Positions 17,578-38,483 of a stretch of DNA of 64,000 bases are shown in pieces. Every line of letters begins with the position of its first letter. Within the stretch, counting starts at the first letter, position 1. Below the pieces are notes generated by a model. That model was not told where the DNA came from. It made no database searches and was given only the letters and a program-made list of their open reading frames with translations. Made by a program: the position numbers and the translations under genes. The stretch lies in assembly GCA_035480035.1 (NCBI GenBank), contig DATIID010000008.1:74401-138400 (forward strand), read 5' to 3'. This DNA is from Candidatus Saccharimonadales bacterium (GTDB lineage Bacteria > Patescibacteriota > Saccharimonadia > Saccharimonadales > OMJO01).

Positions 17578-17657
17578 TTTATAGACCTTTCTTATTCTAT
17601 TGTATCTACTTATACCATAACCATTTTAGATATAGCAATAGTGTTTTTCAATACTAA

Positions 17658-18032: not shown

Positions 18033-18047
18033 AATATTTCTCCTTTT

Positions 18048-18473: not shown

Positions 18474-18763
18474 GACGTTACCTTAGGAATGACAAACGCT
18501 ACGATTGAATAGGCCATAATAGCCACTACTAAACCAACGATGGCATAAAGAATCGTATCTTTGGCTCTGGCGGTTGCTTGTGGATCGCCTCGCGACATGA
18601 CGTATTTAAAACCACCCAACGCGATAATAAATACGGCGATGGCGCCTAAAGTCGCCAATATGGCGGTGACAACATTGTGAATGGTAGCTGAACTGGGAGT
18701 AGCACTCGGCAAGCTTTTGGGACGGTTTATATATACGGCTACCAGATAGATTAGAGCGTTCAT
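18470..18763 (-). CDS. VirB2/TrbC-like pilin family protein, paralog 4 (short, no Cys-containing variable region)
   Basis: 97 aa; helix-loop(KYVMSRGDPQATARAKDT)-helix core only; overlaps paralog 3 by 4 nt and paralog 5 by 1 nt (translational coupling). Confidence 0.5.
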   Translation of the reverse strand: MNALIYLVAVYINRPKSLPSATPSSATIHNVVTAILATLGAIAVFIIALGGFKYVMSRGDPQATARAKDTILYAIVGLVVAIMAYSIVAFVIPKVTS

Positions 18764-19164
18764 TAAGTACCCCCTAGTCGATTGCCAATAAATCCAACGG
18801 CCGAGGCGGCAATGACTGCAATAACTGCGCCGATTAAAGCATTAACTATAGTACGACGGGCTTCTGCGGTTTTATCTGGTTCGCCCTGGCTGATTAGATA
18901 AGTAAAGCCGCCCCATATAACAAAGGCAACTGCTACCAAGCCGGCAATTCTCATGACTATATCCAGAGCCGCTAAACCGATTAGCCAATATTGTCCCCAG
19001 CTATGAATAGTTACTTCACATTTACCAGTCAAAGCACTCTTGGAATAGGACAAATACTTGTACCACCTTGGCAAAGCAAAAAAGTTGCTAGCTTTACTAC
19101 AAGTTACTGCCGGGGCGCCAAAAAACCGAAGTTGAGTTAGGGTATACGTCAGAAAAGCGTACAT
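18763..19164 (-). CDS. VirB2/TrbC-like pilin family protein, paralog 5
   Basis: 133 aa; loop YLISQGEPDKTAEARRT; 2 Cys in the N-terminal region. Confidence 0.5.
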   Translation of the reverse strand: MYAFLTYTLTQLRFFGAPAVTCSKASNFFALPRWYKYLSYSKSALTGKCEVTIHSWGQYWLIGLAALDIVMRIAGLVAVAFVIWGGFTYLISQGEPDKTAEARRTIVNALIGAVIAVIAASAVGFIGNRLGGT

Positions 19165-19165
19165 C

Positions 19166-19840
19166 CTAGAAGATACCTCCCGGCACTAACCACTGAATGA
19201 ATGACCAGAAGAAACCATAGGCTACTAGCGCGAAGACGGCATTAGCGATCTTGCGACGAGCTGCGGCCACGGCATTGGGGTCGCCACGAGAAGCTGAGTA
19301 CTGGATCCCGCCGACCACAATCATAATGGTGACGAGTATGCCGACGCCGATCCCCAGAAAATCAATTGCCGGGAACAACCACCTATTAAAGATCCGGCAA
19401 CTGGTTGGCGAATCACTAGCCCTAAGCAAACACGATCGTTCGCCTTTTCTATCTGCTAGTTCGGCCACGGAAACTGGAGTGCTGCTATTGCCCCCGCCGT
19501 TGCTGTTATTGCTACTGTTATTACCAGTTTTATTTCCGCCACCTTTATTACCACCAGTAGCAAAGACACCAGATGTACAACTGGCTGGCTGATAAACAAA
19601 GCCGCCGCCGCCGTTTGCTAGCTGTAATATGTAACATTTGTTAGCTACCGGATAGCCGCCGGTCGTCACCGGCCAATGACCACAACCACCAACGCCACTA
19701 GGAGCAACTAGCGATTGATAACAGCGCGGCGCGGCGGCAAATACTGATTGAGTATTTAATATTATTGCGGCAAAGGGCATAAGAATAGCCGCTAAAATAA
19801 CAATAAGTGCTTTTAGGTTTTTATTTTGTTTCATTTTCAT
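19166..19840 (-). CDS. VirB2/TrbC-like pilin family protein, paralog 6, with extended Cys-rich and G/N/S-rich N-terminal domain
   Basis: 224 aa; signal peptide; 6 Cys; low-complexity GGNKGGGNKTGNNSSNNSNGGGNSS tract; then conserved helix-loop(QYSASRGDPNAVAAARRK)-helix core. Confidence 0.45.
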   Translation of the reverse strand: MKMKQNKNLKALIVILAAILMPFAAIILNTQSVFAAAPRCYQSLVAPSGVGGCGHWPVTTGGYPVANKCYILQLANGGGGFVYQPASCTSGVFATGGNKGGGNKTGNNSSNNSNGGGNSSTPVSVAELADRKGERSCLLRASDSPTSCRIFNRWLFPAIDFLGIGVGILVTIMIVVGGIQYSASRGDPNAVAAARRKIANAVFALVAYGFFWSFIQWLVPGGIF

Positions 19841-22987: not shown

Positions 22988-24364
22988 ATGTCAGAACTTC
23001 CTCCTGATACAAAAACTATAGAAACACCAACAGTCACCGCCGAAATTCCAACTGTTCCGATGCAAGAAGTTAATGCTGGTCCTACAGAAGCATATATATT
23101 AACCGACGAGCCTGGTGTGGCTTGGCTAGGCATGAAACGATGGGTTACGGCATTTAGAGCAGGTATGGCTGAGCATGTCATCAATCAGTCCGACATTAGC
23201 CATCGAGTATCTAGTCATTCAGCCGAATATGCCCTTCAAGAAGATCCTGTCCATACGGCGGCTCTTTCGACACTTAAGAAACCAGGTAGCGTTAGGGTAA
23301 TAAAGGGTGGTTTTAATCTTGAGAGTGGCGATTCCAAAATTAAGTTTGAGCCTGGCATTGTACCAAAATATCATTCAGAAACTGGGGAATTTACAGGAAT
23401 TGATTTTGATTTTGGGCTCAACATAAATGATAGGAACAAAAAAATTAAAGATGGGATCGACGCCGAAGCAAGAGGCGAGTCCCAAAAAAGAGATGTAGAC
23501 AAGGAAGAAGTTTATATTCTCTCCGAACCCGTAGAACGACGCCGGGCCGAGCGGCCCGTCACCTGGCCAGAACGCCGAGCTTCTCTATTTCGAGCACGCC
23601 AGGTTAGAAAAATGAATAATTTACGAATTTCAAGTGGTCGTTTGAAAAAAGACTATTCCACAAAAGCCCAAGAACTTGGCAGTATAGCGCCACGAGATCT
23701 ATTCAGTGCCGAAAGAGGAATGCATGGGCGCAACGTTAGGACGTTTGGCGAAAGACGCGATTATGCTAAAGCCTATCGACAACAACGTAAAAACACTGAG
23801 GGTGGCATAATTAAACGAGCCCTGGGATTGCCAGTTGGGTATGACCGAATTCGCGAAACTACTGAACAGGCCATTCGCGGTGAGTCCCCTATGCAAAAGC
23901 TAAATATTCGTCGACAAGAGAGCGCCAAAGATAAAGCCAAAGGTCTAAGAGAAGATGTTGAGGTGCTCCGCGCACAACACCAGCACGCCAAAGGACGACA
24001 ACAAAAACGTAACAACTATATGGATGAAATAAAGCGTAGGAATACTTACTTTGCGTCGCAACCGGCAAACATTGACAAAACCGAGGCCGAGTTTGTAGCT
24101 GCTTCACCTTTGGTCACAAAATTAAAGAAGCTATCAGCTCGCGCCACTAAATCGCGTGCCGCAAAATCGACGGTTGATATTGCTAGACTAAACCATCAGA
24201 TTCGTAGCCAAACCGACAGTGATAACAAACAGGTATTAGCCGAGAAATTGACCCGGACTCGACAAAAAAAGGCCGGCTTAGCTTCGAAGGCTTACAACCG
24301 ATACAAGGATATAAATCGACGCCGAACTGAAACCGGTAAGGTTGATGTAACCGGCTGGATGTAA
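22988..24364 (+). CDS. Hypothetical highly basic, low-complexity (K/R/E-rich) protein within the T4SS-like locus
   Basis: 458 aa, no TM, predicted largely disordered/charged; no recognisable domain. Confidence 0.3.
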   Translation: MSELPPDTKTIETPTVTAEIPTVPMQEVNAGPTEAYILTDEPGVAWLGMKRWVTAFRAGMAEHVINQSDISHRVSSHSAEYALQEDPVHTAALSTLKKPGSVRVIKGGFNLESGDSKIKFEPGIVPKYHSETGEFTGIDFDFGLNINDRNKKIKDGIDAEARGESQKRDVDKEEVYILSEPVERRRAERPVTWPERRASLFRARQVRKMNNLRISSGRLKKDYSTKAQELGSIAPRDLFSAERGMHGRNVRTFGERRDYAKAYRQQRKNTEGGIIKRALGLPVGYDRIRETTEQAIRGESPMQKLNIRRQESAKDKAKGLREDVEVLRAQHQHAKGRQQKRNNYMDEIKRRNTYFASQPANIDKTEAEFVAASPLVTKLKKLSARATKSRAAKSTVDIARLNHQIRSQTDSDNKQVLAEKLTRTRQKKAGLASKAYNRYKDINRRRTETGKVDVTGWM

Positions 24365-24423: not shown

Positions 24424-25653
24424 GTGCTAATGGCTACGTATAAGGTTATCCAGGATATTGAGGCCGAGGACAAGCTGTTGGGGCCGTTAACGCTACGGCA
24501 GTTTATCTATGCTGCGATTACAATCGTTATTGGTTTTATTATCTTTAAAACCCTGGGTTCTGGTGTTTGGTATGTTGCTCTTGGATTGGCACCACCGATG
24601 TTTTTCTTTGGACTACTGGCGGCGCCATTTGGCCATGATCAATCGTCAGAAGTTTGGATGCTTGCCAAAGTTCGTTTTTGGATAAAACCACGAATTAGAA
24701 TCTGGGACCAAGACGGCGTCAACGATTTGGTGACCATTACCGCCCCGAAACCACCGCCAAACTTAACTAATGGTTTGTCTCAGCCCGAAGTTCAAAGCCG
24801 ATTAGAAGCCCTGGCCACCACCATCGATAGCCGTGGTTGGGTGGTTAAAGATTTGGGCTATGACCCATTTGCCACCAATCAAACCGATCGTTTAGTTGAT
24901 GAATCGCAAACACTTAAAGAAGCGTCGCCAGTTGATATGTCTCAAGTGGTTGACGTTATGGATGAAAACACCAACCCAACGGCCCAAAACTTTGACAAAT
25001 TAATGGCCGCGGCTGAGCAATCCCATCGCCAGCAAATTGAGGCCTCGATGCAAAAAGCTATCCAAAAACCGGGTGATAAGTCCAAGACTAAAACCCAACT
25101 TGAAGAGGAAGCCCAGAAACCAGCGCCTGATTTTTGGTTTATGCGTGAAGATCACTCGCCAACCGAACCAGGCATTTCAATTTTCGATAACCCGGCTGTG
25201 GTAGCACCTGGTTCAAGGGACCTTGATTTGCCATATCAGCCAACCGATGAAGAGCAAAAAATTATCAACCGCGCCAAAGACGAACAAGCTCAACCACTAC
25301 CAATTATGTATCACTTAGCCAGGCTGGATGATGTTGAGCAACCCGAGCCAGAACCTGAACCGGCGGCACTGAAACAACCGACGCCGTCCAATATAGCAAT
25401 GAGCAGTTTAGACGTAAAATTACCGCCGATTGTTACTAAAAAAACACCAGATACCAGCAGCTACTCAACACCAAATACTGGCCCTCCCATAACTGCCCAA
25501 ACTGATATAATGAAAAAGAAGATCCCCTCGCTGCCATTCAACAATGATTTGAATGTCGAAACAATTGCGCGCGAAGCCAATCGTGAGACAGTCAAAGTTG
25601 ATACTTTAGGTGACGAGGTGGTGATTAATTTGCATTACAAGGGCACCTCTTAG
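24424..25653 (+). CDS. Membrane-hairpin protein (VirB3/PrgI-like N-terminus, tentative) with long acidic Pro/Glu-rich C-terminal tail
   Basis: N-terminal 2-TM hairpin (FIYAAITIVIGFIIF / VALGLAPPMFFFGLLAAPF) directly upstream of VirB4, as VirB3 homologues usually are; C-terminus contains a PEPEPEP tract. Confidence 0.3.
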   Translation: MLMATYKVIQDIEAEDKLLGPLTLRQFIYAAITIVIGFIIFKTLGSGVWYVALGLAPPMFFFGLLAAPFGHDQSSEVWMLAKVRFWIKPRIRIWDQDGVNDLVTITAPKPPPNLTNGLSQPEVQSRLEALATTIDSRGWVVKDLGYDPFATNQTDRLVDESQTLKEASPVDMSQVVDVMDENTNPTAQNFDKLMAAAEQSHRQQIEASMQKAIQKPGDKSKTKTQLEEEAQKPAPDFWFMREDHSPTEPGISIFDNPAVVAPGSRDLDLPYQPTDEEQKIINRAKDEQAQPLPIMYHLARLDDVEQPEPEPEPAALKQPTPSNIAMSSLDVKLPPIVTKKTPDTSSYSTPNTGPPITAQTDIMKKKIPSLPFNNDLNVETIAREANRETVKVDTLGDEVVINLHYKGTS

Positions 25654-25685: not shown

Positions 25686-26648
25686 ATGAATCCAAACTCT
25701 AAAACACCAAGTAGTCGACCAACCTCAGGCGCAGTTGGGGGCCAGTATTATGGTGACATTGGTAAATCTCCTTCGCCAATCGCTGGTCCCACACCAGCAG
25801 CCGGCCATGAGCCGCCCCGCCCGCAAAATTATTCTCAGTTTACGCCTATGGGTCAGGCCGCGCCTGCTCCGGGTGCTCCCGGTGGACCACGGGCGCCCTT
25901 GCCGCCACACGTCATAAACCCGAACAGCACTCAAAACATGTTGCAAATTGCCGAAATTCGCGACGGTTTGGTAATTATGAATGATGGCTCATTCCGCTCA
26001 ATCGTTATGGCTCGATCAATTAACTTTGATTTGATGAGCCCGGACGAGCGTGAAACGATTGAATATGCTTATCAAGGTTTTTTGAATTCGTTGCATTTTC
26101 CGGTTCAAATTTTCATTCGCACTGAACGAGTTGATATTCGTCCTTATTTGGAACGGCTCGATAATTTACGGCGGCAACAGGACAATATGTTATTGGCTCT
26201 ATTGATGGAAGACTATATAGGCTACGTTGAAGAGTTGGCCAGCCAAACCAACATTATGGACAAGAAGTTTTATTTAGTTGTGCCGTATTTTCCGGTCGCC
26301 GATATTCAAAAAGCGATTACTCAAAGCAAAAATTTCTTCACTGGTTTAATTGATATGTTTAACAAAAAAGCGCGACGTGTCACCATCAACGAGGCTGAGC
26401 TAAACAATGCTAAGGTGGAACTGCGCGAACGGGTTCAGGGTGTTTTGGCTGGTTTGCAACAAGCCAGTATCAAAGCCTTGCCGCTTGATACCCAAGAATT
26501 GATCGAGTTGTACTACGACATTTACAACCCAGACACTGCTACCCGCCAACAGCTCAAAAACTTTGACGGTATTAGCGAACCTGTGGTGACCAAAGGCGAG
26601 GGCGAAGCGCCCCAACCAGGACTAACTCCGGAGAATAACAATGGCTAA
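25686..26648 (+). CDS. Protein with Pro-rich N-terminus and VirB4 N-terminal-domain-like region (possible 5' part of a split virB4)
   Basis: Segment DGSFRSIVMARSINFDLMSPDERETIEYAYQGFLNSLHFPVQIFIRT resembles the start of Gram-positive-type VirB4/TraE ATPases (recalled, not searched); its stop overlaps the next ATG by 8 nt. Confidence 0.3.
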   Translation: MNPNSKTPSSRPTSGAVGGQYYGDIGKSPSPIAGPTPAAGHEPPRPQNYSQFTPMGQAAPAPGAPGGPRAPLPPHVINPNSTQNMLQIAEIRDGLVIMNDGSFRSIVMARSINFDLMSPDERETIEYAYQGFLNSLHFPVQIFIRTERVDIRPYLERLDNLRRQQDNMLLALLMEDYIGYVEELASQTNIMDKKFYLVVPYFPVADIQKAITQSKNFFTGLIDMFNKKARRVTINEAELNNAKVELRERVQGVLAGLQQASIKALPLDTQELIELYYDIYNPDTATRQQLKNFDGISEPVVTKGEGEAPQPGLTPENNNG

Positions 26649-28563
26649 GAAAATTGACGCTGTCACCGCCGCCGAACAACAACGCTTGCTTGAAGAACAA
26701 CAAGTCCAAACTGCTTTTCAAAAAGGCATTACGGCGCTGCGCGATTTTATTGCACCCAGTTCCATCGAGTTAAAATCGACTTTTTTCCAGATTGGTACAC
26801 GTTATGCTCGAGCTTACTACGTTTATGGCTACCCGAGGCAGTTATTTACTGGTTGGCAGAGCAGCATAATCAATCTTGACGAAGTAATTGACCTGTCGAT
26901 GTACATTTACCCAGTGGAAAGCCAAGTTGTGTTGGAAAACCTGCGCAAAAAAGTCGGGCAACTGGAAGCTGGTTTGCAGATCGACGCCGAAAAAGGCCGC
27001 GTTCGAGATCCGGCCAAACAAATTGCCATTTTAGACGCTGAAGAAATGCGCGACAAATTGCAGGTCGGGGAGGAACGCTTCTTTAGATTTAGCATGTACT
27101 TCACGCTTTACGGTAGTAGCCAGGAAGAGTTGGAGTTTGTTTCGCGCAAAGTTGAATCGATTCTTGGACAACAGTTAATTTTTTCTAAGCCGGCCACGTC
27201 TCAGCAAGAGCAAGGTTTAAACAGTACGATTCCGCAGTTTATAGACCAATTGCAGATTAAACGTAATTTTAGCACTGGTGCGCTTAGTACCAGTTTCCCA
27301 TTCACCTCGGCTGATCTAACTCAAGAAAACGGTATCCTTTATGGCATCAACATGCACAACTCAGGTTTAGTTATCTTTGATCGGTTTACTCTAGAAAACA
27401 GCAATGCCGTGGTGTTTGCGAAGTCTGGCGCCGGTAAATCTTTCGCGGTTAAGTTGGAAGCTTTGCGAAGTCTGATGATGGGTACGGAGATTTTTATCAT
27501 CGACCCAGAGAACGAGTATCAGCGTATGGCTGAAGCCGTTGGCGGGGCATATATTCGACTGAGCCTAAACTCTGCGACTCGAATCAATCCATTTGACCTA
27601 CCGACTGTAGTGGATGTTGAGGAGGCCGACAACGCCTTGCGTAGTAACTTAATTACCTTGCATGGATTGCTGCGTCTAATGATGGGTGGTGCTCAAGCCG
27701 TCCTGGCCAGTGGTTCGTCAACTGCCGCACCGGCGCTATCTCCAGTTGAAGAGGCCGATCTGGATTCCTCCCTAATTGAAACTTATGCCCGCGCCGGCAT
27801 TACCAATGACCCCTTAACTCACAAGTCACCACCTCCCACCATTAATGATTTATATGACACACTCCTGCACATGGGTGGCTCGGGACCGCAATTGGCTTCG
27901 CGTCTACGCAAATATACCAGCGGCACATTTGCTGGCATTTTTTCTCAGCCCAGCAATATCGACATCAACAATACTATGGTGGTCTTTAACATCCGCGACC
28001 TAGAAGACGAATTACGACCGGTCGCTATGTACATCGTGCTGAACTATATTTGGAACAAAACTAAGGCCGACCAACAACGTCGTATCTTGGTCGTGGACGA
28101 GGCCTGGCAATTGATGAAATACGAGGACTCGGCTAATTTCTTATATTCGTTAGCGAAACGGGCTCGTAAATACAACCTTGGTATTACCACAATCACTCAG
28201 GACGTCGAAGACTTTATGGGTTCCCGTATGGGTCGGGCGATTGTGGCCAACGCCAGTATGCAGGTGCTTATGAAGCAAGCGCCATCGGCCGTTGATGTGT
28301 TATCTGATGTTTTTAAGTTGACCAGCGAAGAAAAGAAGCGGCTCAGCCAATTCCCGGTCGGACAAGGTCTATTCTTTGCAGGACAAAACCATGTGCACAT
28401 TCAAGTAGCGGCCAGCGCGACGGAAACTGGTTTGATCTCAACAACACCAGTCGCTAGGCAAGCAGCTGCAGCTCAGGCTAGTCAGTCAACCGGCGAACTT
28501 GACCAAGCCCAGGGCAGTATCGAACTGAACAATCAGCCACCACCGCCAGCGGGGGGAGTATAA
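26641..28563 (+). CDS. virB4: VirB4/TrbE-family T4SS ATPase
   Basis: IAPSSIELKS...IGTRYARAYYVYGYPR VirB4 region; Walker A AKSGAGKSF; Walker B RILVVDEAWQLM; 640 aa. Confidence 0.7.
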   Translation: MAKKIDAVTAAEQQRLLEEQQVQTAFQKGITALRDFIAPSSIELKSTFFQIGTRYARAYYVYGYPRQLFTGWQSSIINLDEVIDLSMYIYPVESQVVLENLRKKVGQLEAGLQIDAEKGRVRDPAKQIAILDAEEMRDKLQVGEERFFRFSMYFTLYGSSQEELEFVSRKVESILGQQLIFSKPATSQQEQGLNSTIPQFIDQLQIKRNFSTGALSTSFPFTSADLTQENGILYGINMHNSGLVIFDRFTLENSNAVVFAKSGAGKSFAVKLEALRSLMMGTEIFIIDPENEYQRMAEAVGGAYIRLSLNSATRINPFDLPTVVDVEEADNALRSNLITLHGLLRLMMGGAQAVLASGSSTAAPALSPVEEADLDSSLIETYARAGITNDPLTHKSPPPTINDLYDTLLHMGGSGPQLASRLRKYTSGTFAGIFSQPSNIDINNTMVVFNIRDLEDELRPVAMYIVLNYIWNKTKADQQRRILVVDEAWQLMKYEDSANFLYSLAKRARKYNLGITTITQDVEDFMGSRMGRAIVANASMQVLMKQAPSAVDVLSDVFKLTSEEKKRLSQFPVGQGLFFAGQNHVHIQVAASATETGLISTTPVARQAAAAQASQSTGELDQAQGSIELNNQPPPPAGGV

Positions 28564-28584: not shown

Positions 28585-31500
28585 GTGAGTAATAACGACT
28601 TAGAGGAACGCGAAACTAGCGGTGACGATTTTTCCAAAAATCTCGATGCCAAATATTCAAAGGCTGAACGCAAAAAACTTGAAGAAAAATCTCAAAAAGA
28701 AGCCGAATCACCAACCACTGAGCAACTCGCTAAAGACCGGCAAGAATCGGCCAAGTCGGCCGGACAAGATGACGGTAACAGTATTCCGTTTCGACAAGAG
28801 AAAAAAAGCCGCTTCAAAGGCAAAGGTAAGGGGGGTAGCCGTAGTCTTGCCAAAAAAGCGCTGATTGGTGGCGGCATTGGTGGCGGCATCGTCGCGCTAA
28901 TAATTACGATCTTTGTTAGCTTGTTGCCACTTAAGTTAATTCACATTTTTGAAAACTTGCAGCAACATTTTTTTGGTACTAGCGAATCGGCTGTCCAAAA
29001 CCGCTCCGAAAGATTACTTAGCGACTACCTCAAAAAGAAAGTAGCGCCAGGTATGACTATCGGTGGACCTTGTGGTCGCTGGAGCACTATTGATAAAAAT
29101 TGTGTCAAAAACTCACCAACTGACTCCGCGTCTGGCCGTTTATATAACGCTTGGCGGGACGCCCGAATTGAGAACGACTTATCGTCTAAATTCGGCATTG
29201 AGCTAGCCAAGACCGGTCCAACCCAATTCAAATTAAGCATCAACGGCACTGATTCAGGTGTTAATGTTGATGGCTGGTTAAACTCGACTAATGACAAAAC
29301 AACATTGTGGACAGCTATTGGTGGTCGGTCAGACGTCCGTCAAACATTTCGGCAAGCCTTTCAGAACGAGACATACCTTAAAAGGATTATGTATCGCTTC
29401 AAGGTCGGACGTTTACTGGAGCGCAAGTACGGCATTAAGCGGTGTGTGTTTGCTTGTAACGCCAAAGATAAGTTCGATGACTGGGGCGATAACAGCAGCC
29501 AAGCCTTTAAGTTAATGGTGATTCGCCGGGTCATAATTCCACACACCCAGTTTGTCGGCTTTGCGTTAGAGTGTATCATCACCAATACCTGTGGCAATAA
29601 TACGACTACGGATGTTACCCAAGACGGTGAAGACAATCAACGCCGTGACACGCTTGAGAAAAAGATAGCCGCAATGCTGCAGAAAAACGCTGTCGAGTAT
29701 AGTGCCGATTCGGTTTCTAAAATCGCGACAGTGGCCGAGCAGATATTAAAATACGATAAAGCTGGTGGCTTTACGAATTATTTAATTCAAAGCATTGCCG
29801 ATTCGGTTAGTAGCGATCTGGTTAGTGGTGCCACCGAAAAAGCGATACCAATTATTGGCTATATTGATATGGCGGCCAAGGTCTGGAGTACTGTAGCCAA
29901 CGCCGGACCGAAGATTAAGCGCTGGACATTCGCTATCACGACGACGGCGATGATTACGTACTATATGATGGGCGCTTCGCAAGCCAGCGAGATTAAAGCC
30001 GGTCATACTAACCATCAGGTAACAGGGTCTTTGGTTAGCGCCCTAGGCAATACCGCCGGCAGCGCCGGCCACCAAAACCAGCCAGCCGAAAACGCACCGC
30101 TGTATACCGCCCTGATAGGTGGTAATGGCCCGCCGCAGCGTTCGATTATTAGTACTATGCTACCTAGCGCTTTAGCGGCCGATCCGGCTAATCCAGATTT
30201 ATCGCCAAAAGCCTACACCTGTGATGACGGTAGTATATTGAATACCGCAAAAAGCCTAGTTTGTCCCGAGGAAAGTGTTAAAGCCAGTAATATTTTTGTA
30301 AAAATTTCCGATTTGTTTCATAGTCCACCATTAAGCGGGATAACTACATTCTTCAATATTTGGAATAAAAGTATCGGCACGATCTTGGGTTGGGTTGGTA
30401 AAATAGGTGCTCTCGGGTGGAATGTTGTTGACAATATTTTAAATGGTATAGTGCCCGGCTATAAAAGCGCCAAAGATGCCATTTTGGCGCAGGTCGGAAA
30501 GTTACTCGAAGCCGTGGCCCAATGGCTCATACCGTCGCCGATATCTGACAACATGAGCGGTGCCAGATCGTTTGATATGTTAGCCGGTGGGGCCGATGCC
30601 GCCGGATCCGACTATTCGCATTATGGTTTAGGTGCCAAGCGGGTAACTGATCAAGTGGCGGCCAGGATAGAGCAAGAACAAGAAGACCAGGCTTTACAAG
30701 ATTTTCAAAGCCGGCCTTTCTTTGCGCGGATGTTTGATGTTCAGGATGCTCATTCGCTAGTCTCACAGCTAGCTATGGATGTGCCGATAAGCACCAACAC
30801 TATTGTCCAAAACGGTTTGGCGTCATTTATCTCAAATCCATTCACGAAAATATTCAACGGTTTTGCCGCTATGTTGCCGGGTGGCCAAAAAGTCCATGCT
30901 GCCCCAATCAATGACCCGTTTGGTATTCCGCAGTTCGCTTATGATTTAAATGATCCTGAAGTCCAGGCCGCCATGGGAGTAGACCCAGACACACTGACTG
31001 ATTCGGTTTGCGCTCAGATGAATAAAGACTGGGCTAACGGTACTGGTCAATTTGCTGGTACGCTAAAGATTGATCCCGATACCGGCAGTGATTACCACAC
31101 AAAAGTTGATCCCTGTTTATTAAATTCCGCGGCGGCCGGAAGCGCTGGTGGCTACTTCAGTACTGATGTATTGTCAGCGTCTGATCTAGGCCCGCCATCT
31201 TCTAACAACGGCAACAACAATCCGCCACCAACAGGAGGCGGAACTGGTGGTTATCATAATCCGTTTCATGATATGACTAATGTGTTGCAGAGCCGTATCG
31301 ATGAAGGCGTTGACTACGTCGCTAAGTCTGGCACGTCTGTGCCGGTTTACGCTATCGGCAATGGTGTAGTTGATATAGTTTCTTCAAACAGTACTTTTTA
31401 TACGACTTCGGCCGGTAACGCTGACTGGGTAACTTATCACCTAACTGATGGTCCGGCAGCTGGCAAATATATCTACATTGCCGAGGGCTGCCCCATTAGC

Positions 31501-31767
31501 ACAATTAGCCCGGGCGATAAAATCACCTGGCAGACGCGGCTGTGCGACATGGAGCCAGACAGCATTGAGATGGGCTGGGCGTCTGGTGGCACCATCCAAA
31601 CACCGGCGGCCAGCAATGTCTATATTGAGTGTCATCAAACAGCTTATGGTGTCAATTTTAATCAATTACTAGTTAAATTAGGCGCACCGACTGGCCATCC
31701 GGACACTGGTGGCGGAGCTTGTCTAAATATCGAGGGTAGCTTGCCGGGAGGGTGGCCGTCGTGGTGA
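28585..31767 (+). CDS. Large bitopic surface protein with C-terminal LytM/M23-like domain (catalytic residues apparently degenerate); PrgK/VirB1-analog candidate
   Basis: 1060 aa; charged N-terminus; single TM (IGGGIGGGIVALIITIFVSLL); C-terminal GVDYVAKSGTSVPVYAIGNGVVDIV matches the M23 core, but the HxxxD His and the HxH motif are replaced (IDEGVD; NVYIECHQ). Confidence 0.4.
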   Translation: MSNNDLEERETSGDDFSKNLDAKYSKAERKKLEEKSQKEAESPTTEQLAKDRQESAKSAGQDDGNSIPFRQEKKSRFKGKGKGGSRSLAKKALIGGGIGGGIVALIITIFVSLLPLKLIHIFENLQQHFFGTSESAVQNRSERLLSDYLKKKVAPGMTIGGPCGRWSTIDKNCVKNSPTDSASGRLYNAWRDARIENDLSSKFGIELAKTGPTQFKLSINGTDSGVNVDGWLNSTNDKTTLWTAIGGRSDVRQTFRQAFQNETYLKRIMYRFKVGRLLERKYGIKRCVFACNAKDKFDDWGDNSSQAFKLMVIRRVIIPHTQFVGFALECIITNTCGNNTTTDVTQDGEDNQRRDTLEKKIAAMLQKNAVEYSADSVSKIATVAEQILKYDKAGGFTNYLIQSIADSVSSDLVSGATEKAIPIIGYIDMAAKVWSTVANAGPKIKRWTFAITTTAMITYYMMGASQASEIKAGHTNHQVTGSLVSALGNTAGSAGHQNQPAENAPLYTALIGGNGPPQRSIISTMLPSALAADPANPDLSPKAYTCDDGSILNTAKSLVCPEESVKASNIFVKISDLFHSPPLSGITTFFNIWNKSIGTILGWVGKIGALGWNVVDNILNGIVPGYKSAKDAILAQVGKLLEAVAQWLIPSPISDNMSGARSFDMLAGGADAAGSDYSHYGLGAKRVTDQVAARIEQEQEDQALQDFQSRPFFARMFDVQDAHSLVSQLAMDVPISTNTIVQNGLASFISNPFTKIFNGFAAMLPGGQKVHAAPINDPFGIPQFAYDLNDPEVQAAMGVDPDTLTDSVCAQMNKDWANGTGQFAGTLKIDPDTGSDYHTKVDPCLLNSAAAGSAGGYFSTDVLSASDLGPPSSNNGNNNPPPTGGGTGGYHNPFHDMTNVLQSRIDEGVDYVAKSGTSVPVYAIGNGVVDIVSSNSTFYTTSAGNADWVTYHLTDGPAAGKYIYIAEGCPISTISPGDKITWQTRLCDMEPDSIEMGWASGGTIQTPAASNVYIECHQTAYGVNFNQLLVKLGAPTGHPDTGGGACLNIEGSLPGGWPSW

Positions 31768-33140
31768 CACCCAAACGCCATCTGAGATTTACTCGATCTG
31801 GGTCAGCATTTGACTTGGTATTGATGTTGTTGGTTGGTGTATTACTAATTAATTTAACTTGGCCGGCTATCGTGTCGGCAGCTAGCCTTTCACAAGACGA
31901 CAAGGAAGCTATCGTTGGAAACTGGCCGCACTGGACGACCCAAAATTTTGCCAGTGATACTTCCACCACCGGCGGTGGAACTTGTGGTGGTTCAAACGGT
32001 GCCACTGATGGCGGCAAAGTTTATTTTTTGGGTGACTCCATCGGCGTTAGAACAACTCCGGCTTTAACCACCGCTTTAAGTGCTAAAGGCTTTAAGCTAA
32101 AGTCAGATTCGTTATCGTCTCGTACATTATCGGGCGGAAGTGTTTCGCCCGACGGCTTAACGGCCGCTCGACAAGCCGCCGACAAAGCCTTCATTAAAAC
32201 GGCTAACGTAATCGTGATTGAACTGGGTACTAATAGCTCAGGATTTTCAAATGCTAACATTGATAAGTTAATTAGCGAAATTCGGCCAATTGCTCAACCA
32301 GGTGCAAAATTTTATTGGGTTGATACAGTCGTGGTTGGTCGTGGTAATGCATATGCGTCATCTTTTAGCGCAACCAATCAGACTATTTATGGCCACAAAT
32401 CAATCGGTAATTACGCCGTTATATCTTGGAACAAGAAAGTATTGGGCGCTAACGCCAATCCCCTTAATATTAGGCCTAGTGCCGTTGATACAAATGGTTA
32501 TATTGATAAGACTGACCATCTAGGTGTACATCCGACTGTTCCAAAGGGCTCTAATGCTTTGGCTAATTTAATTACCACGGCCGTTGTTAATGGCGGCGGG
32601 GGTTGTAGTGGTGGTGGTACTGTTGCTGGTAACTGTAACGAAGATAAGGTGTGGAATTTCTTTATTGGCAAGGGCTTATCCCAGGTCGCTACCGCCGGTA
32701 TCATGGGCAACTTTCAGGCCGAGTCCCACTTTGAACCACGACTTGTTCAATATGGCGGCCGCAACTATAAAGGTCAGGTTTCAGTCCAGGGCCAACCCTC
32801 CAGTCTTGCCGACTATTTGAACGCCGATGGCACGACTGGCTACGGCATTGCCCAATGGACAGCAATTGGCAGACAAACTGGTTTACACAATTATGCTACT
32901 AGTAAAAAAACCATTGACGGCAATCTAACTACCCAGCTTGGTTGGGCCTGGACGGAAATTACCAGTCCGTATTTTGCCCACGTTTATCTGGTCTTAAAAA
33001 CCTCAAAGAATATTGCTGAAATCAATTCGGTCTTCGGACATGAATATGAAGGCTATGGTACAAATACTGAAGCCACTCGTCTACAATTCGGTCAGGATAT
33101 TTTAAACGCCCTGGGTGGCGGCGGAAGTTCGTGTACTTAA
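31752..33140 (+). CDS. Secreted/membrane-anchored SGNH(GDSL) hydrolase fused to a lysozyme-like domain (putative peptidoglycan esterase/hydrolase)
   Basis: N-terminal TM/signal; SGNH blocks FLGDSIG, ELGTNS, DHLGVH; C-terminal AGIMGNFQAESHFEP...GYGIAQWT resembles the phage-tail-lysozyme-like muramidase family (tentative recall). Confidence 0.45.
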   Translation: MAVVVTPKRHLRFTRSGSAFDLVLMLLVGVLLINLTWPAIVSAASLSQDDKEAIVGNWPHWTTQNFASDTSTTGGGTCGGSNGATDGGKVYFLGDSIGVRTTPALTTALSAKGFKLKSDSLSSRTLSGGSVSPDGLTAARQAADKAFIKTANVIVIELGTNSSGFSNANIDKLISEIRPIAQPGAKFYWVDTVVVGRGNAYASSFSATNQTIYGHKSIGNYAVISWNKKVLGANANPLNIRPSAVDTNGYIDKTDHLGVHPTVPKGSNALANLITTAVVNGGGGCSGGGTVAGNCNEDKVWNFFIGKGLSQVATAGIMGNFQAESHFEPRLVQYGGRNYKGQVSVQGQPSSLADYLNADGTTGYGIAQWTAIGRQTGLHNYATSKKTIDGNLTTQLGWAWTEITSPYFAHVYLVLKTSKNIAEINSVFGHEYEGYGTNTEATRLQFGQDILNALGGGGSSCT

Positions 33141-33172: not shown

Positions 33173-34687
33173 ATGAGAAATAAACTCGCGGCACTAGTCC
33201 TAATATTTGTGGTGTTAGTAGCGGCGATTTGGTTTAAGGGCCAGTCATTTCTAGAAATTACAATTAATAACGGAGCGGGCCAGCTGTCCTATAGCTTGGT
33301 TAATCAAAATTCTCAAAAAATAATTAGCCTAAAAAATTCTTCAAACCATATCAAAAAAAGATTACCAGTGGGCAACTATGAATTGGTGGCAACTAATGGC
33401 AGTGGCAGTTTTTTGGCAGTGGCCAAAACCCATGGTTTCTTTCGGACTACAAGTATTAGTGGGAGTCTACAACCTGAGCGGGAAAGACAGTTTATTGGTA
33501 ACGACCCCGGTTCATGTATGAATTACATTGATAAAATTTTAATTTCTTATGATTGTGGTAGTTTGTTGAGCGACGCGGTGATTCATGCACCCGCTACGGC
33601 TAAGTTACCCAGTTACATCTACAAAAATCCAGCTGAAACTTTTGGCGGCGGCGAATCAGGAGGTGAGGCTTCAGAGATCACGCTCAATGGTTATATCCAG
33701 GGCACAATTACTATTGGCAATGACTTATGGGCTTTAATCCAATCGACCGCTGGCAAAACTGGACCGGTCATAGCAATTGCTAAATTGAAAAATAATCTGG
33801 CGTTGGATGATCGGGTCGCTTTAAGTGACCTTGATATTGACCTGTCGTACAATATAAAGCCGTATAAAAGTGGGTTTATTGTTTATGACTCAACGTTTGG
33901 TGGCGATATTTATTATTACGCCACGCCTCAATCTAAACCCGATATATTAAGTTTTGTCCGTCCTCAGAGCCGTGATTTAGCGGCCACCAGTTTAGACACT
34001 CACGACAACAAGATTCTAATGTTTTACTCACAACCAACTACAGACTCAGGTAAAGCAACTTCGGAAATTGCCCTTAGTTCAGATGGTCATGAGTCCCATT
34101 TTAAGCTTAACAAAGCCTATATTAGGGTTGGCTTTTGTGGCTCTGATAAAGTTTGTGCACTTGGCGACAAGGGTTTGGACATTTACAACATTAGTGGCAA
34201 AAAGGCCGCCATGTTATTCGCGGTCAACGGCATTACCGATTTCAGGACGTATGGTGACAGAGTAATTGCGGTTCGTCAAAAAGATATCATCGATTTAGAC
34301 GTTAGTTCGCAAACCGGCTTCATTTCCTACAGTTTTGGAGATTACGAGTATGCTGACATTCAAGCCGACCAGACCGGTTACATTTTGCGCCTAAACGGCC
34401 CAAGCGGCAGCTCAGCCTTATTGATTGATGAAAAAAGTAATGTCACAACGGCGATTGATAAGAAAGTTTTGGAGATTGGCGCCTGGTCCGAAGTAAAGTC
34501 GGTTTCGGCTTATGGCAATTACGTCTTTATTTCGCCGAATATTGGTGAGCCTGATCAGTACAACAGTCAACTGCGGATTTTTGACTATGATCCAGCTAAA
34601 CGCCAAGCGGCCACTAATAGCATTAACCAAAAGTTGCCGCCTTTAAATATCGATAAAAAATATACGGTTGTTAATTTACTTCAATAG
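33173..34687 (+). CDS. Hypothetical N-terminally anchored extracytoplasmic protein (last gene of the T4SS-like block)
   Basis: 504 aa; N-terminal TM (LAALVLIFVVLVAAIW) then a large beta-rich-looking domain; no motif recognised. Confidence 0.3.
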   Translation: MRNKLAALVLIFVVLVAAIWFKGQSFLEITINNGAGQLSYSLVNQNSQKIISLKNSSNHIKKRLPVGNYELVATNGSGSFLAVAKTHGFFRTTSISGSLQPERERQFIGNDPGSCMNYIDKILISYDCGSLLSDAVIHAPATAKLPSYIYKNPAETFGGGESGGEASEITLNGYIQGTITIGNDLWALIQSTAGKTGPVIAIAKLKNNLALDDRVALSDLDIDLSYNIKPYKSGFIVYDSTFGGDIYYYATPQSKPDILSFVRPQSRDLAATSLDTHDNKILMFYSQPTTDSGKATSEIALSSDGHESHFKLNKAYIRVGFCGSDKVCALGDKGLDIYNISGKKAAMLFAVNGITDFRTYGDRVIAVRQKDIIDLDVSSQTGFISYSFGDYEYADIQADQTGYILRLNGPSGSSALLIDEKSNVTTAIDKKVLEIGAWSEVKSVSAYGNYVFISPNIGEPDQYNSQLRIFDYDPAKRQAATNSINQKLPPLNIDKKYTVVNLLQ

Positions 34688-35777: not shown

Positions 35778-36869
35778 CTAGCTCTTGAGCGGCATGATAA
35801 CGTGTAGATAATCGGTACTCTTGGGATCTTTCAAGACGCAAGGTTCAAGTTTGCCGTTAAACGCAAACACCACATCCTCGCCGTTCAAACAATTCAGAGC
35901 GTCTAAAATGTAGCGTGAGTTCAGTGTAATTGTGCTGTCGGTTGATACTTCAGCAGTGGCGCTAGCCACGTTCTCGCCAAGCTGTGAAGCAATCGAATGA
36001 ATGCTCAGCTGGTTGGCTTTTTTATCTAGATCAATGGTTACGCTGCCGGCGTTTTCGCGGGCAAATAGACTGGACACTTTGGTCACGTTAGTTAGTTCGG
36101 CGCGTTTAAGTTTAGCGGTATTAGCAAAATTAGTCGGAATTAGTTTGCGGTAATCTGGATAGTTGCCCTCAATTTGTCTGGTGACCAGCTCAATCTCGCC
36201 AACTTTAAATAAAACTTGTTGGTCGTCATGGACGATTTCAACCTCATCTTCTTCATCGCCAACAATTCGAAGCAGGTCCTGAATAGCTCCGGCCGGAATT
36301 AACATCTGGACATCGGTCTTAAGCTTGATTAGGCCCTTTTCGGCTAATCTATAGCTGTCGGTAGCCACCAAAAAAAGCTGGCCGTTGAAAGTATGGATAT
36401 AGACACCGGTTAAAACTGGCCGCGACTCATCGTTACTGGCCGCGACCACTACTTGATTAAGCCCACTTTTTAAGGTTTTACCGCCAAGTTTTAGGGTTTG
36501 ACCATTCGAAATGGCCGGCATAACCGGAAAGTCGTCAGCTGGGACACCGTTAATGACCGATTTATAACGATCGGTACTGATGTGAAGTTTATTATCTTCA
36601 AGCTTCAGTTCAATAACACTGCTCGGCAAGCTAGCCACAAAATCCTGCATCAGTCTAGCCGGTACTGTAATTGAGCCTTCTTGTTCAACTTTTGCGCCAA
36701 TGTATTGAGTTATCGCGACGTCAAGGTTGGTAGCCGCAATACTAAGCCGATTGTTAGTGGTTTTGATCAGAATGTTTGACAAAATAGGTAGAGTACCTCG
36801 AGTGATAGCAATGCGCGAAACATTGCCTAAGGCTTTAGTTAGGTTTTCTTGGGTAACTTGAAGTTTCAT
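35778..36869 (-). CDS. dnaN: DNA polymerase III beta sliding clamp
   Basis: 363 aa; N-terminus MKLQVTQENL...LSNILIKT typical of DnaN; position between dnaA and recF. Confidence 0.8.
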   Translation of the reverse strand: MKLQVTQENLTKALGNVSRIAITRGTLPILSNILIKTTNNRLSIAATNLDVAITQYIGAKVEQEGSITVPARLMQDFVASLPSSVIELKLEDNKLHISTDRYKSVINGVPADDFPVMPAISNGQTLKLGGKTLKSGLNQVVVAASNDESRPVLTGVYIHTFNGQLFLVATDSYRLAEKGLIKLKTDVQMLIPAGAIQDLLRIVGDEEDEVEIVHDDQQVLFKVGEIELVTRQIEGNYPDYRKLIPTNFANTAKLKRAELTNVTKVSSLFARENAGSVTIDLDKKANQLSIHSIASQLGENVASATAEVSTDSTITLNSRYILDALNCLNGEDVVFAFNGKLEPCVLKDPKSTDYLHVIMPLKS

Positions 36870-37115
36870 ATTACTACTCCTTTATATAAGTTAGTTGTAG
36901 GATTAATAAACCCTGTGGAAACACTGGAAAACTTTTGCTCAACGGGGTTAGAGTGACAACCAAGCTGTGAACAATACTGTTTAATAGTTTGGTAAAAGAC
37001 TCGGAAAACTGATGGGTTTTCCCACACCACAGCAACACCAAGAACATGCCTGTGTATTAATCGATGGATTTGCCCACAAGTATGCCGTACATTATCAACA
37101 ACTTTTACCCATACT
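36870..37115. promoter_or_regulatory. dnaA-dnaN intergenic region with DnaA-box-like 9-mers (second oriC module)
   Basis: TGTGGAAAC, TTTTCCCACA, TTTGCCCACA and TGTGAACAA variants of TTATCCACA/TGTGGATAA seen by eye; AT-rich. Confidence 0.4.
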
Positions 37116-38483
37116 TTAGGCATATAAATACTCCTTGATCTCACTAATCGCGCTGCGGATATCATTATCAAAACCAGCCTCTTTCTCAATTTTTTCAACG
37201 GAATGAATCGCGGTGGTGTGGTCTTTTCGGCCAAGTTCCCTGGCAATTTTAGGAAAACTCAAATGTAGCTCACTTCTGAGTATATACATAGCGACCTGGC
37301 GCGGTACGACAATGTCTTTATCGCGCTTTGGTCCTAAAATATCTTCAAGCGGAATCTGAAAATGCTTAGCGGTGCGCTCAATAATCTGCTTAGCGCTAAT
37401 GTGTTTGGGCCGCGACTTGCTGTCATTTAACAAACTGGTGGCCACTGCTAGATCGGGTTGCAAGCCGCGCATTTCACAAAACGCCAATAACTGGTTTAGG
37501 GCTCCCTCGAGTTCGCGGATGTTGGACTGAACGAGGTTAGCTAAATATTCCACAACCGCTTGGTCAAGTTCCATATTGACGGCCCCGGCTTTAGTTTGAA
37601 CAATTGCGCAACGCGTTTCAAAGTCCGGATTTTGCATATCAATGCTCATACCCCACGAGAAGCGACTACGCAATCGCTCTTCAAGGGTCGGTATTTCGCG
37701 TGGCGGCTTATCGCTGCTGATAATGATTTGTTTGTTGGCTTGGTGCAACGCATTAAAGGTATGGAAAAATTCTTCCTGAGTTTTTTCCTTGCCGGCGATA
37801 AATTGGATATCGTCAACAATTAAGATGTCGGCAGTGCGATAGTAACCAGCAAAATCAGTATTTTTCTTATAACGGATAGCGTCTAAAAATTCCTGAACAA
37901 ACTGCTCAGTTGAGATGTAAACGACGTGTGCTTTTGGGTTTTTTTGCCGGACAGCATTACCAACAGCTTGGATTAAATGGGTTTTGCCAATGCCAACCCC
38001 ACCATAAATAAATAGCGGATTGTATTTGGTGCCCGGGGCTGCGGCAATTGCTTGACAAGCCGCGTAAGCTAATTCGTTGCCAGAACCAACAATAAAGTTA
38101 TCAAAACTATAACGCTCATTAACACCCTGTCGATAAGCGTGAGTCAAGGTTGTTCTTGTCGGTCGGCCCTCACTGGCTAACGGCTCGTCCTTTGGTTTAA
38201 CGATTGACTCATCCTCATTTAGTTTTCTTGATGACGAAAAAGAAGAGTGAATTTTAAATTCAACCCGATCAGGCGTAACACCATTTTTGGCGAGCGTATC
38301 AAGGATCAATTGATTATATTTTTTTTCAAGCTGTTGTTTGATAAAGACATTGGGTACACCAACCACCAAAACGTTATCTTTGAATCGCAGCAGTCGGGTA
38401 TTTTTAAACCAGGTAATATAATTACCTCTCGACACAGACACTTCAATTTCGCCCAATACTGCTTGCCACAAGCTATCTTGCAT
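37116..38483 (-). CDS. dnaA: Chromosomal replication initiator DnaA
   Basis: 455 aa; AAA+ Walker A GGVGIGKTHL; Walker B IVDDIQF; C-terminal DNA-binding helix-turn-helix region (RQVAMYILRSELHLSFPKIARELG); GGAG RBS. Confidence 0.9.
   Translation of the reverse strand: MQDSLWQAVLGEIEVSVSRGNYITWFKNTRLLRFKDNVLVVGVPNVFIKQQLEKKYNQLILDTLAKNGVTPDRVEFKIHSSFSSSRKLNEDESIVKPKDEPLASEGRPTRTTLTHAYRQGVNERYSFDNFIVGSGNELAYAACQAIAAAPGTKYNPLFIYGGVGIGKTHLIQAVGNAVRQKNPKAHVVYISTEQFVQEFLDAIRYKKNTDFAGYYRTADILIVDDIQFIAGKEKTQEEFFHTFNALHQANKQIIISSDKPPREIPTLEERLRSRFSWGMSIDMQNPDFETRCAIVQTKAGAVNMELDQAVVEYLANLVQSNIRELEGALNQLLAFCEMRGLQPDLAVATSLLNDSKSRPKHISAKQIIERTAKHFQIPLEDILGPKRDKDIVVPRQVAMYILRSELHLSFPKIARELGRKDHTTAIHSVEKIEKEAGFDNDIRSAISEIKEYLYA

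Follow-up and report, generated by a model that had tools for sequence, protein, structure and literature searches.

A membrane-anchored His-less LytM-fold protein and an SGNH-muramidase fusion as the probable wall-breaching pair of a Saccharimonadia type IV secretion system

We analysed two adjacent genes, here termed geneA and geneB, in a 64,000-nucleotide stretch of a Candidatus Saccharimonadales genome (GenBank assembly GCA_035480035.1, contig DATIID010000008.1, positions 74,401 to 138,400 of the forward strand; hereafter the window). An earlier reading, made from the sequence alone, had proposed that their products form the peptidoglycan-remodelling module of a monoderm type IV secretion system (T4SS). 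Both open reading frames (ORFs) are present exactly as that sequence-only reading had drawn them (Table 1), and each peptide that it quoted could be located: GVDYVAKSGTSVPVYAIGNGVVDIV corresponds to geneA residues 908-932 and DEGVD to residues 906-910, and in geneB the motif GDSIG occupies residues 94-98, GTNS 159-162, DHLGVH 255-260, GNFQAESHFEP 319-329 and GIAQWT 365-370. The geneA product is 100% identical to the NCBI hypothetical protein VLF39_04290 of a Candidatus Saccharimonadales metagenome-assembled genome. The two genes overlap by 16 nt. The deposited counterpart of geneB (P0027) is 100% identical over 459 aa, a length that implies a GTG start at 31761, and a GGGAGGG motif lies 8 nt ahead of this GTG.

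The pair lies directly 3' of VirB4, within the order pilins-VirB6-PrgI-TraC-like-VirB4-geneA-geneB-recF-dnaN-dnaA, in which recF, dnaN and dnaA are on the minus strand. The same placement occurs in four independent loci, namely this one, the T4SS locus of Southlakia epibionticum (S. epibionticum) and two further Saccharimonadia contigs (L081 and L082). Because the gene order is shared with S. epibionticum and both of these contigs, and the setting comprises VirB4, PrgI, VirB6-like and pilin genes, the proposal that the pair is a T4SS module is well supported. For S. epibionticum, it has already been published that a peptidase/lysozyme pair downstream of virB4 is associated with the T4SS and essential. 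Family scans detected no SLT, CHAP or NlpC/P60 domain, of the sort found in the profile models TrsG, CD419 and VirB1, in either geneA or geneB. VirB4 itself is encoded by two overlapping ORFs, and because the same split recurs in L081, L082 and SEML1_0009/0008 of S. epibionticum, it is a feature of the lineage and not a frameshift.

Table 1. Positions in the window of geneA, geneB, their parts and the neighbouring T4SS genes.
Feature	Coordinates	Strand	Basis or description
geneA	28585-31767	+	ORF, 1060 aa, GTG start
geneA residues 1-87, K/S/E-rich N-terminal tail	28585-28845	+	composition, ahead of transmembrane segment
geneA residues 88-125, single transmembrane segment	28846-28959	+	Kyte-Doolittle scan, maximum 2.48, sole segment above threshold
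geneA residues 126-870, Cys-rich extracytoplasmic scaffold (~750 aa)	28960-31194	+	conserved among 25 homologues
geneA residues 871-889, Gly/Asn/Pro-rich linker, domain-swap boundary	31195-31251	+	orthologue homology stops here
geneA residues 890-1060, His-less LytM/M23-fold domain	31252-31764	+	profile, AlphaFold2, Foldseek, hhalign
Invariant carboxylates of geneA	D906 31300-31302; D910 31312-31314; E967 31483-31485; E995 31567-31569	+	conservation table
geneB	31752-33140	+	ORF, 462 aa; exported SGNH + muramidase protein
geneB residues ~13-47, N-terminal signal peptide or anchor	31788-31892	+	hydrophobicity scan
geneB residues 89-280, SGNH domain of the OatA-C/PatB kind	32016-32591	+	family alignment, AlphaFold2, Foldseek, profile
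SGNH catalytic codons of geneB	Ser96 32037-32039; His260 32529-32531	+	family alignment
geneB residues 296-454, lysozyme-like domain of gp13-N/PrgK-MUR type	32637-33113	+	PF18013, gp13 profile
VirB4, two-ORF form	25686-28563	+	P-loop_TraG (Pfam) E=3.9e-27; TraC_F_IV weak
VirB4 ORF 1	25686-26648	+	TraC-like N-terminal protein, 320 aa, first ~80 residues Pro/Gly/Ala-rich
VirB4 ORF 2	26641-28563	+	640-aa P-loop ATPase, overlapping ORF 1
PrgI-family gene	24424-25653	+	PrgI E=2e-10
458-aa gene	22988-24364	+	between VirB6-like and PrgI-family genes
VirB6-like gene, 996 aa	19934-22924	+	weak TrbL match
Six tandem VirB2-like T4SS pilin genes	17161-19840	minus	PF18895, E 5.5e-7 to 4.6e-13

In S. epibionticum ML1, the T4SS locus spans SEML1_0004-0019 and SEML1_0008 is VirB4 (Wang et al. 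2023, PMC10633639). The same slot (VirB4, then a large protein, then a lysozyme protein, then recF-dnaN-dnaA) is filled there by SEML1_0007, a protein of 1113 aa with a Hedgehog/DD-peptidase fold at residues 951-1105, and by SEML1_0006, which combines a lysozyme-like domain, a phage tail lysozyme domain (PF18013) and a cysteine protease (PMC10633639). SEML1_0007 and geneA are of similar size (1113 versus 1060 aa) and both carry a C-terminal domain of peptidoglycan-peptidase type, and both SEML1_0006 and geneB contain PF18013. The enzymatic domains differ, however, in that SEML1_0007 ends in an M15B/VanY fold and geneA in a His-less LytM fold, whereas SEML1_0006 is built from GH73-like, PF18013 and Cys protease parts and geneB from SGNH and PF18013. 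Both S. epibionticum genes score GD/ES/ES in transposon sequencing, i.e., they are essential (PMC10633639, supplementary tables). The essentiality of the peptidase and lysozyme homologues downstream of virB4 is also reported in PMC12102498, in which VirB1 profiles missed these genes and they were termed 'other glycosidases' that may fill the role. Of the two additional contigs, one encodes a scaffold protein with GDSL and VanY domains followed by a GH3 protein, and the other a scaffold protein with endonuclease/exonuclease/phosphatase (EEP) and M23 domains followed by a protein joining Phage_lysozyme2 to Peptidase_C39_2.

The geneA product has one hydrophobic segment, at residues 88-125, in agreement with its earlier description as bitopic; a hydrophobic segment near the N-terminus is likewise present in its orthologues, a few of which show weak additional ones. 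From this predicted topology, the N-terminal tail is presumed to be cytoplasmic. Full-length geneA returned no match in Pfam and NCBIfam scans and only a non-significant match to TagE in a phmmer search of the PDB, and since these scans gave nothing, the C-terminal domain was cut out and a family profile was built. The scaffold that precedes this domain has no sequence relative in Pfam, NCBIfam or the PDB, and a profile of residues 1-870 searched against PDB sequences yielded only noise (E>=0.3) before position ~865. Across the 25 homologues the scaffold is conserved at 26-57% identity, with nine invariant cysteines (C163, C173, C287, C291, C330, C546, C560, C809 and C844), and in our homologue survey it was seen only in a T4SS context.

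What follows the linker is exchangeable. The closest orthologue of geneA (P0002, 57% identity) carries a different, canonical M23 domain with QHLH past this point, and the C-terminal swap is therefore evolutionarily recent. Other scaffold orthologues terminate in PF01551 M23 domains as well (P0012, P0014, P0017 and P0019, in addition to P0002), in PF02557 VanY (M15) domains (seven proteins), or in PF03411 M74, PF13472 GDSL, EEP or beta-helix domains, and among those without a Pfam match, LAS-type motifs such as SDHHPG...GRAIDF...NHVH are discernible by eye. The slot that geneA fills with its His-less domain is thus one that orthologues fill with intact Zn peptidases. As a separate observation, a PF03372 (EEP) domain is inserted between the scaffold and the M23-type domain in P0014, P0017 (L082 9001-13767; two copies) and P0138; such inserts occur in some scaffold orthologues and in some members of the His-less family, and teichoic-acid or nucleic-acid substrates are possibilities for this domain on a T4SS wall-hydrolase scaffold.

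The sequence-only reading had seen a clear M23 core at the C-terminus of geneA. The fold is real, although the query alone stays sub-threshold in Pfam: PF01551 matched the isolated domain with E=0.053 and 14.2 bits, short of the 28.7-bit gathering cut-off, over profile positions 3-30 only. A profile of the His-less family, by comparison, retrieved an M23 chain from the PDB (9gy1, E=0.005), and hhalign against 11 canonical M23 domains gave a probability of 95.5% and E=1.3e-8. An AlphaFold2 (AF2) model built from a 30-sequence alignment reached a predicted local distance difference test score (pLDDT) of 94.8 and a predicted template-modelling score (pTM) of 0.91. When this model was searched against the PDB with Foldseek, the top 27 matches were all M23/LytM (query template-modelling score, TMq, 0.29-0.50, mostly 0.40-0.50; E down to 2.8e-4), comprising active enzymes (LysTt72, Csd1, ShyA, EnpA and lysostaphin) as well as degenerate domains (Csd2, SpoIIQ, DipM (7qrl), EnvC (4bh5) and PrgK-LytM (8s0u)). 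Against BFVD, the matches were M23 only, namely phage peptidases that include Lysin A of actinobacteriophages. The domain shares with canonical M23 enzymes (lysostaphin, LytM, ShyA, EnpA) both the fold and the motifs xGVDY, PVYA-G-G-V and the V-GD-V hairpin, but unlike them it has an extra C-terminal helix and an LPxGWPxW tail. The domain also contains a Cys969-Cys987 pair.

The histidines of the canonical M23 metal site are replaced in this domain. Alignment by hhalign paired D906 with H32 of lysostaphin, D910 with D36 and E967 with H82, such that the proposed change of H-x-x-x-D to D-E-G-V-D is borne out, as is the broader claim of an M23 fold without the canonical Zn-ligand histidines: the profile alignment places no His opposite H32, D36 or H82. 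The replacements are close to invariant. In 149 cluster representatives, D910 and E995 are retained in 149/149 and D906 and E967 in 148/149, D906 never being His; across these members there is no conserved His at all, the five His of the query all falling at variable positions. Other invariant or nearly invariant residues are Y890, P893, R904, G908, Y911, Y922, G925, Y951, G956, T984, G997, W998, T1019, G1022, N1024, P1058 and W1060. The second substitution proposed earlier, which equated HxH with NVY...CHQ (residues 1011-1018), is probably wrong, because these residues form a variable loop whose positions are not conserved across the family. Judged by the order of strands in the model, the counterpart of the HxH strand would be I994-E995-M996-G997-W998(-A999), which follows the V-G-D-V hairpin and holds E995 but no His, and by parity the side chain of E995 is predicted to face the same way as the HxH histidines. 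Attempts to locate the HxH equivalent by hhalign (low mact, global mode, or C-terminal halves alone) returned zero-confidence alignments. Residues 890-895 (31252-31269), ahead of D-x3-D, form a Y-x-N-P-[LF]-R motif that is likewise nearly invariant among family members. Active M23 enzymes stabilise the oxyanion through a Tyr or Arg that precedes HxxxD (PMC9662197), and Y890, R895 and R904 are candidate counterparts of this residue.

The His-less, carboxylate-substituted M23-fold domain defines a family that current Pfam and NCBIfam models do not capture. A HMMER search of 1.84 billion cluster representatives recovered 845 clusters (defined at 50% identity) with E<=1e-3, of which 413 had E<=1e-10. 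The proteins listed are 155-1270 aa long, and nearly all of them have the domain at their C-terminus or only a few residues short of it. Among GTDB species representatives, it occurs at 513 loci in Saccharimonadia and Actinomycetota (Acidimicrobiia and Solirubrobacterales), with cultured carriers including Ferrimicrobium acidiphilum, Acidiferrimicrobium sp. and Aciditerrimonas ferrireducens. In a neighbour-joining (NJ) tree of 81 copies, those of Saccharibacteria form nearly one clade, and D906, D910, E967 and E995 are present in all 81/81 copies in both phyla. Only the Saccharibacteria copies have the Cys969/Cys987 pair (22/23), actinobacterial ones having I/V...G at these positions. Mis-binning was rejected as the origin of the actinobacterial copies, given that cultured genera carry the domain and that these copies are without the Saccharibacteria-specific Cys pair. 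Recent transfer from high-GC Actinobacteria was likewise rejected: the segment encoding the His-less domain has a GC content of 0.50 and a third-position GC content (GC3) of 0.49, compared with 0.475 and 0.47 for the scaffold, and with GC3 not anomalous and the clades of Saccharibacteria and Actinomycetota old and separate, nothing points to a recent exchange.

A Pfam census of 75 full-length family members showed that the His-less domain usually sits beside a glycan-cleaving domain, as the M23 domain does in phi29 gp13: Phage_lysozyme2 was found in 35, GH3, GDSL_2 and SLT in 5 each, SLT_2 in 4 and Glucosaminidase (GH73) in 3, and PF01551 matched at E<=1e-3 in just 5 of the 75. The geneA scaffold is carried by at least 11 of the 149 His-less representatives. 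In Acidiferrimicrobium sp. IK (L058 5077-6489), the domain ends a 470-aa secreted protein with five repeats of ~40 aa (GYWLVASDGGIFxFGDAxFYGSTG), and a reading by eye of the ORFs around it showed no evident glycosidase or T4SS gene.

The product of geneB begins with a Sec-like N-terminus (basic n-region, hydrophobic core and VSA-AS), and, judged by eye, it is probably cleaved at VSA-AS. The SGNH motifs named in the sequence-only reading are present and invariant in the family: among 19 sequences, G94-D95-S96-I97, R124, G135, G159-T160-N161 and H260 do not vary. The catalytic Asp is D255, which gives a D-x4-H spacing in the query, compared with mostly D-x3-H in its relatives and the typical D-x2-H. 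Taken singly, geneB falls below the Pfam SGNH cut-offs (DUF459, 13.2 bits versus 27.2) and finds zero matches in the PDB by phmmer, so that a family profile was required; its homologues have precomputed PF13472 or PF04311 matches. The family profile matched the C-terminal domain of Staphylococcus aureus OatA (SaOatA-C; 6wn9/6vjp, the identity of 6VJP as OatA-C being confirmed in PMC9487903) with E=3e-12 and Campylobacter jejuni PatB (CjPatB) with E=3e-7, aligning GDSI with LIGDSV of SaOatA-C and Arg124 with the GR of OatA-C. Both domains of geneB are confidently modelled by AF2, with pLDDT mostly 80-95 over the SGNH block, for which the top Foldseek matches were C. jejuni PatB (8gr2, 8tlb), Streptococcus pneumoniae OatA-C (5ufy), Neisseria gonorrhoeae PatB (7tjb) and acetylxylan esterases (for PatB, OatA-C and GDSL esterases, E 2e-6 to 1e-5 and target template-modelling score, TMt, 0.6-0.7). 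These profile and structure matches place the domain in the branch that handles the 6-O-acetyl group of N-acetylmuramic acid (MurNAc). The domain is thus no generic textbook esterase: its closest solved relatives are the peptidoglycan O-acetyltransferase domains OatA-C and PatB, which supports O-acetyl-peptidoglycan chemistry in the direction of either removal or addition. With these, geneB shares the Ser, Asn, His and GR motif; it differs from them in its fusion to a muramidase, its D-x4-H spacing, and in that no AT3/MBOAT partner was found, either fused to it or among the neighbouring genes scanned.

The second domain of geneB, which had been noted as reminiscent of phage-tail muramidases, does show significant similarity to a muramidase fold. 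PF18013 (Phage_lysozyme2) matches residues 296-453 with E=1.1e-26 and 94.1 bits against a cut-off of 28.2, covering profile positions 2-139 of 140, and the family profile matches phi29 gp13 (3csr/3csq) with E=1.2e-14. In the latter alignment, E324 falls on gp13 E45 (within GNMQSES), and this Glu324 (32721-32723), located within GNFQAES, is invariant in the family.

Two characterised systems resemble the pair. PrgK of the Enterococcus faecalis plasmid pCF10 (PMC11323569) is a T4SS wall hydrolase encoded beside a VirB4 homologue, with an N-terminal tail and one transmembrane helix, a LytM fold without HxxxD/HxH and a muramidase of the gp13/phage-tail-lysozyme type; its 'SLT' domain is really a muramidase, the only PDB homologue of which is gp13-N and the AFDB neighbours of which are 'phage tail lysozyme', with Glu573 as the retained equivalent of the catalytic Glu (PMC11323569). 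However, PrgK is a single LytM-MUR-CHAP polypeptide, whereas here the functions are divided between two genes, CHAP is missing, SGNH is added, and the ~750-aa scaffold has no counterpart in PrgK; moreover, the LytM site of PrgK is simply degenerate, whereas that of geneA consists of invariant carboxylates. The tail-associated wall-degrading enzyme gp13 of phage phi29 (3CSQ/3CSR) has an N-terminal lysozyme-like domain homologous to geneB 296-454, and its design of lysozyme plus M23 is also the commonest architecture in the His-less family (35/75). The M23 domain of gp13, by contrast, is a canonical Zn D,D-endopeptidase with a His/Asp/His site, and here two proteins are involved, with an M23 fold without His.

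Taking the domain identities, folds, conservation and synteny of the pair as observed, we consider it probable that geneA and geneB constitute the wall-breaching module (equivalent to VirB1/PrgK) of the origin-proximal, pilus-bearing, Gram-positive-type T4SS of Saccharimonadia, in which the functions of gp13 and PrgK are split over two translationally coupled genes. In such a module, geneA would be anchored by its one helix, with the Cys-rich scaffold holding an exchangeable, peptidoglycan-peptide-directed domain at its far end, and geneB would be exported by Sec, joining a MurNAc 6-O-acetyl-directed SGNH domain to a muramidase of the gp13-N/PrgK-MUR type. The SGNH domain would strip the O-acetyl groups that block muramidases, the muramidase would sever the glycan strands, and the LytM-fold domain on the scaffold would cleave the cross-links, or at least bind them and position the cut, at the T4SS. 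In this way a gap would open locally in the cell's own wall, and possibly in that of the host as well, to let the pilus or channel through.

Several points weigh against this reading. Each enzymatic activity in the scheme, and the wall that it would act on, is a prediction, and the orthology of geneA and geneB to SEML1_0007 and SEML1_0006 is proposed from position and architecture. The query itself is below the Pfam thresholds for both M23 and SGNH; the proposed equivalence of E995 is without sequence-alignment support, alignment beyond residue ~991 being noise; and the spatial clustering of D906, D910, E967 and E995 is likewise a prediction, from alignment and strand parity. As for the target, the pair might mainly be offensive, i.e., aimed at the actinobacterial host wall so as to attach, drive the pilus through or release nutrients, instead of aiding T4SS assembly through the epibiont's own wall, with rapid domain swaps that track host peptidoglycan chemotypes. 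We view this as possible, if less likely than not. Enzyme domains are indeed shuffled between close relatives (P0002 combines 57% scaffold identity with another C-terminus, and L081 and L082 have further combinations), the His-less family is common only to Saccharimonadia and the host phylum Actinomycetota, its viral structural neighbours include actinobacteriophage Lysin A, and the T4SS is essential for epibiotic growth, is without relaxase and coupling protein, and bears pilins. Both the domain shuffling and the confinement of the family to the epibiont class and the phylum of its hosts fit host targeting without showing it. Against it, enzymes of the PrgK type cut the donor's own wall (PMC11323569), the two clades are old and separate without anomalous GC3, and geneA is anchored in the membrane of the epibiont. 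That the two genes are instead ordinary growth or division autolysins lying beside T4SS genes by chance strikes us as highly improbable: wall hydrolases built from M23, SGNH and lysozyme domains are commonplace across all bacteria and the His-less domain is also found outside T4SS loci, but all Saccharimonadia loci examined keep the position directly after VirB4 even though their enzyme domains change, geneA and geneB overlap, and the scaffold is confined to the T4SS context. For the SGNH domain, a further point against the proposed scheme is that its closest solved relatives are transferases and not esterases. An O-acetyltransferase like OatA-C or PatB, which would acetylate MurNAc, for example to shield the cell's own wall from its muramidase or to mark the cut site, would account for the best profile and structure matches (SaOatA-C, CjPatB, S. 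pneumoniae OatA-C and N. gonorrhoeae PatB, all of them transferases) and for the correspondence of invariant Arg124 to the GR of OatA-C. According to a review of SGNH enzymes, moreover, transferase and esterase families share the same Ser-His-Asp machinery, and sequence and fold do not separate the activities. We nonetheless judge a transferase unlikely, since no AT3/MBOAT acetyl donor is fused to geneB or occurs among the scanned neighbours, which cover part of the window, since OatA-C and PatB have weak esterase activity, shown without an acceptor (SGNH review), and since fusion to a muramidase fits removal better. With O-acetylation often inhibiting muramidases (PMC11323569) and no AT3/MBOAT gene among those neighbours, de-O-acetylation ahead of muramidase attack appears the most coherent function.

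Whether the His-less domain acts as a hydrolase or as a regulator is more evenly contested. The sequence-only reading had offered two options, an inactive degenerate LytM (dLytM) domain or an altered catalytic centre, and the evidence leans toward the second, the replacements being invariant carboxylates and not drifted positions: four such residues persist in at least 149 cluster representatives from two phyla, which suggests an altered centre and not decay. Because of this invariance, and because Zn peptidases can take the place of the domain on the scaffold, a functional site, whether metal-binding or catalytic, is favoured over a decayed one, and D906, D910, E967 and E995 may have a metal or catalytic role. 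Against this stands the precedent that all characterised M23 folds without the His/Zn set are non-catalytic interaction modules (PMC9662197), the LytM domain of PrgK itself among them (PMC11323569). This makes a regulatory domain a strong rival, to which we grant a sizeable chance, if less than an even one: like PrgK-LytM, EnvC, NlpD, DipM or Csd2, the domain would be non-hydrolytic, would bind peptidoglycan or a partner so as to target or throttle the geneB muramidase, and would use its carboxylates as a cation or ligand site. The LytM domain of PrgK is degenerate and metal-free and down-regulates the MUR domain (PMC11323569), degenerate LytM domains (Csd2, SpoIIQ, DipM, EnvC and PrgK) are among the structural matches, and the His-less domain is most often fused to a glycan-cleaving domain, as expected for a regulator; like the degenerate LytM regulators, it has a LytM fold without the Zn ligands. 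However, four invariant acids, found in two phyla exactly where the metal and catalytic residues used to be, are unlike drifted dLytM sites (such invariance would be atypical for degenerate LytM regulators, yet compatible with them), the T4SS-scaffold slot otherwise holds intact Zn peptidases, and the protein of L058 (Acidimicrobiia) has no evident Pfam-recognisable enzyme partner, its N-terminal half consisting of repeats. The most far-reaching combination of these possibilities is one that we consider unlikely as a whole: the domain would be an active hydrolase with an all-carboxylate centre, in which a D906/D910/E995 metal triad stands in for His-Asp-His and E967 for the catalytic His, i.e., a new catalytic type in the M23/LAS fold common to Saccharimonadia and Actinomycetota, which, mounted on the T4SS scaffold and interchangeable with Zn peptidases, would breach actinobacterial host walls, its swaps tracking the peptidoglycan chemotype of the host.

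In the literature, we found no specific description of an SGNH-muramidase fusion or of a His-less LytM domain in Saccharibacteria. Nor did we find described a conserved scaffold with an exchangeable hydrolase at its C-terminus and a partner gene of shuffled glycosidase/esterase content, the module as a split gp13/PrgK design, or a His-less, carboxylate-substituted M23-fold family. The T4SS is among the few systems proven essential for the epibiotic life of Saccharibacteria, and enzyme domains swapped on a conserved module give a handle on substrate and host specificity. If the His-less domain is active, the chemistry of the M23/LAS fold is extended; if it regulates, it represents a new and widespread class of regulator.

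The surroundings of the pair show several further features. Between geneB and recF lies a gene (33173-34687) for a 504-aa protein with an N-terminal hydrophobic anchor, for which Pfam and NCBIfam scans returned zero matches; the content of this slot varies, S. epibionticum having two small proteins (PEGA/Ig-like and prealbumin-like) and L081/L082 one or two small ORFs. Between dnaN and dnaA there is a short ORF (36866-37246, listed as 126 aa), overlapping dnaA at the latter's end, and small called genes of 79-99 aa are found at the dnaN-dnaA position in both L081 and L082. At the other end of the locus, the six pilin genes differ in sequence from one another and are transcribed divergently from the VirB6-like gene, and they agree with the essential pilin array reported in S. 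epibionticum. Two other genes neighbour this array: 13882-15543 encodes a glycosyltransferase of PMT_2 type, and 15687-16364 a ComF-like phosphoribosyltransferase that has a double zinc ribbon.

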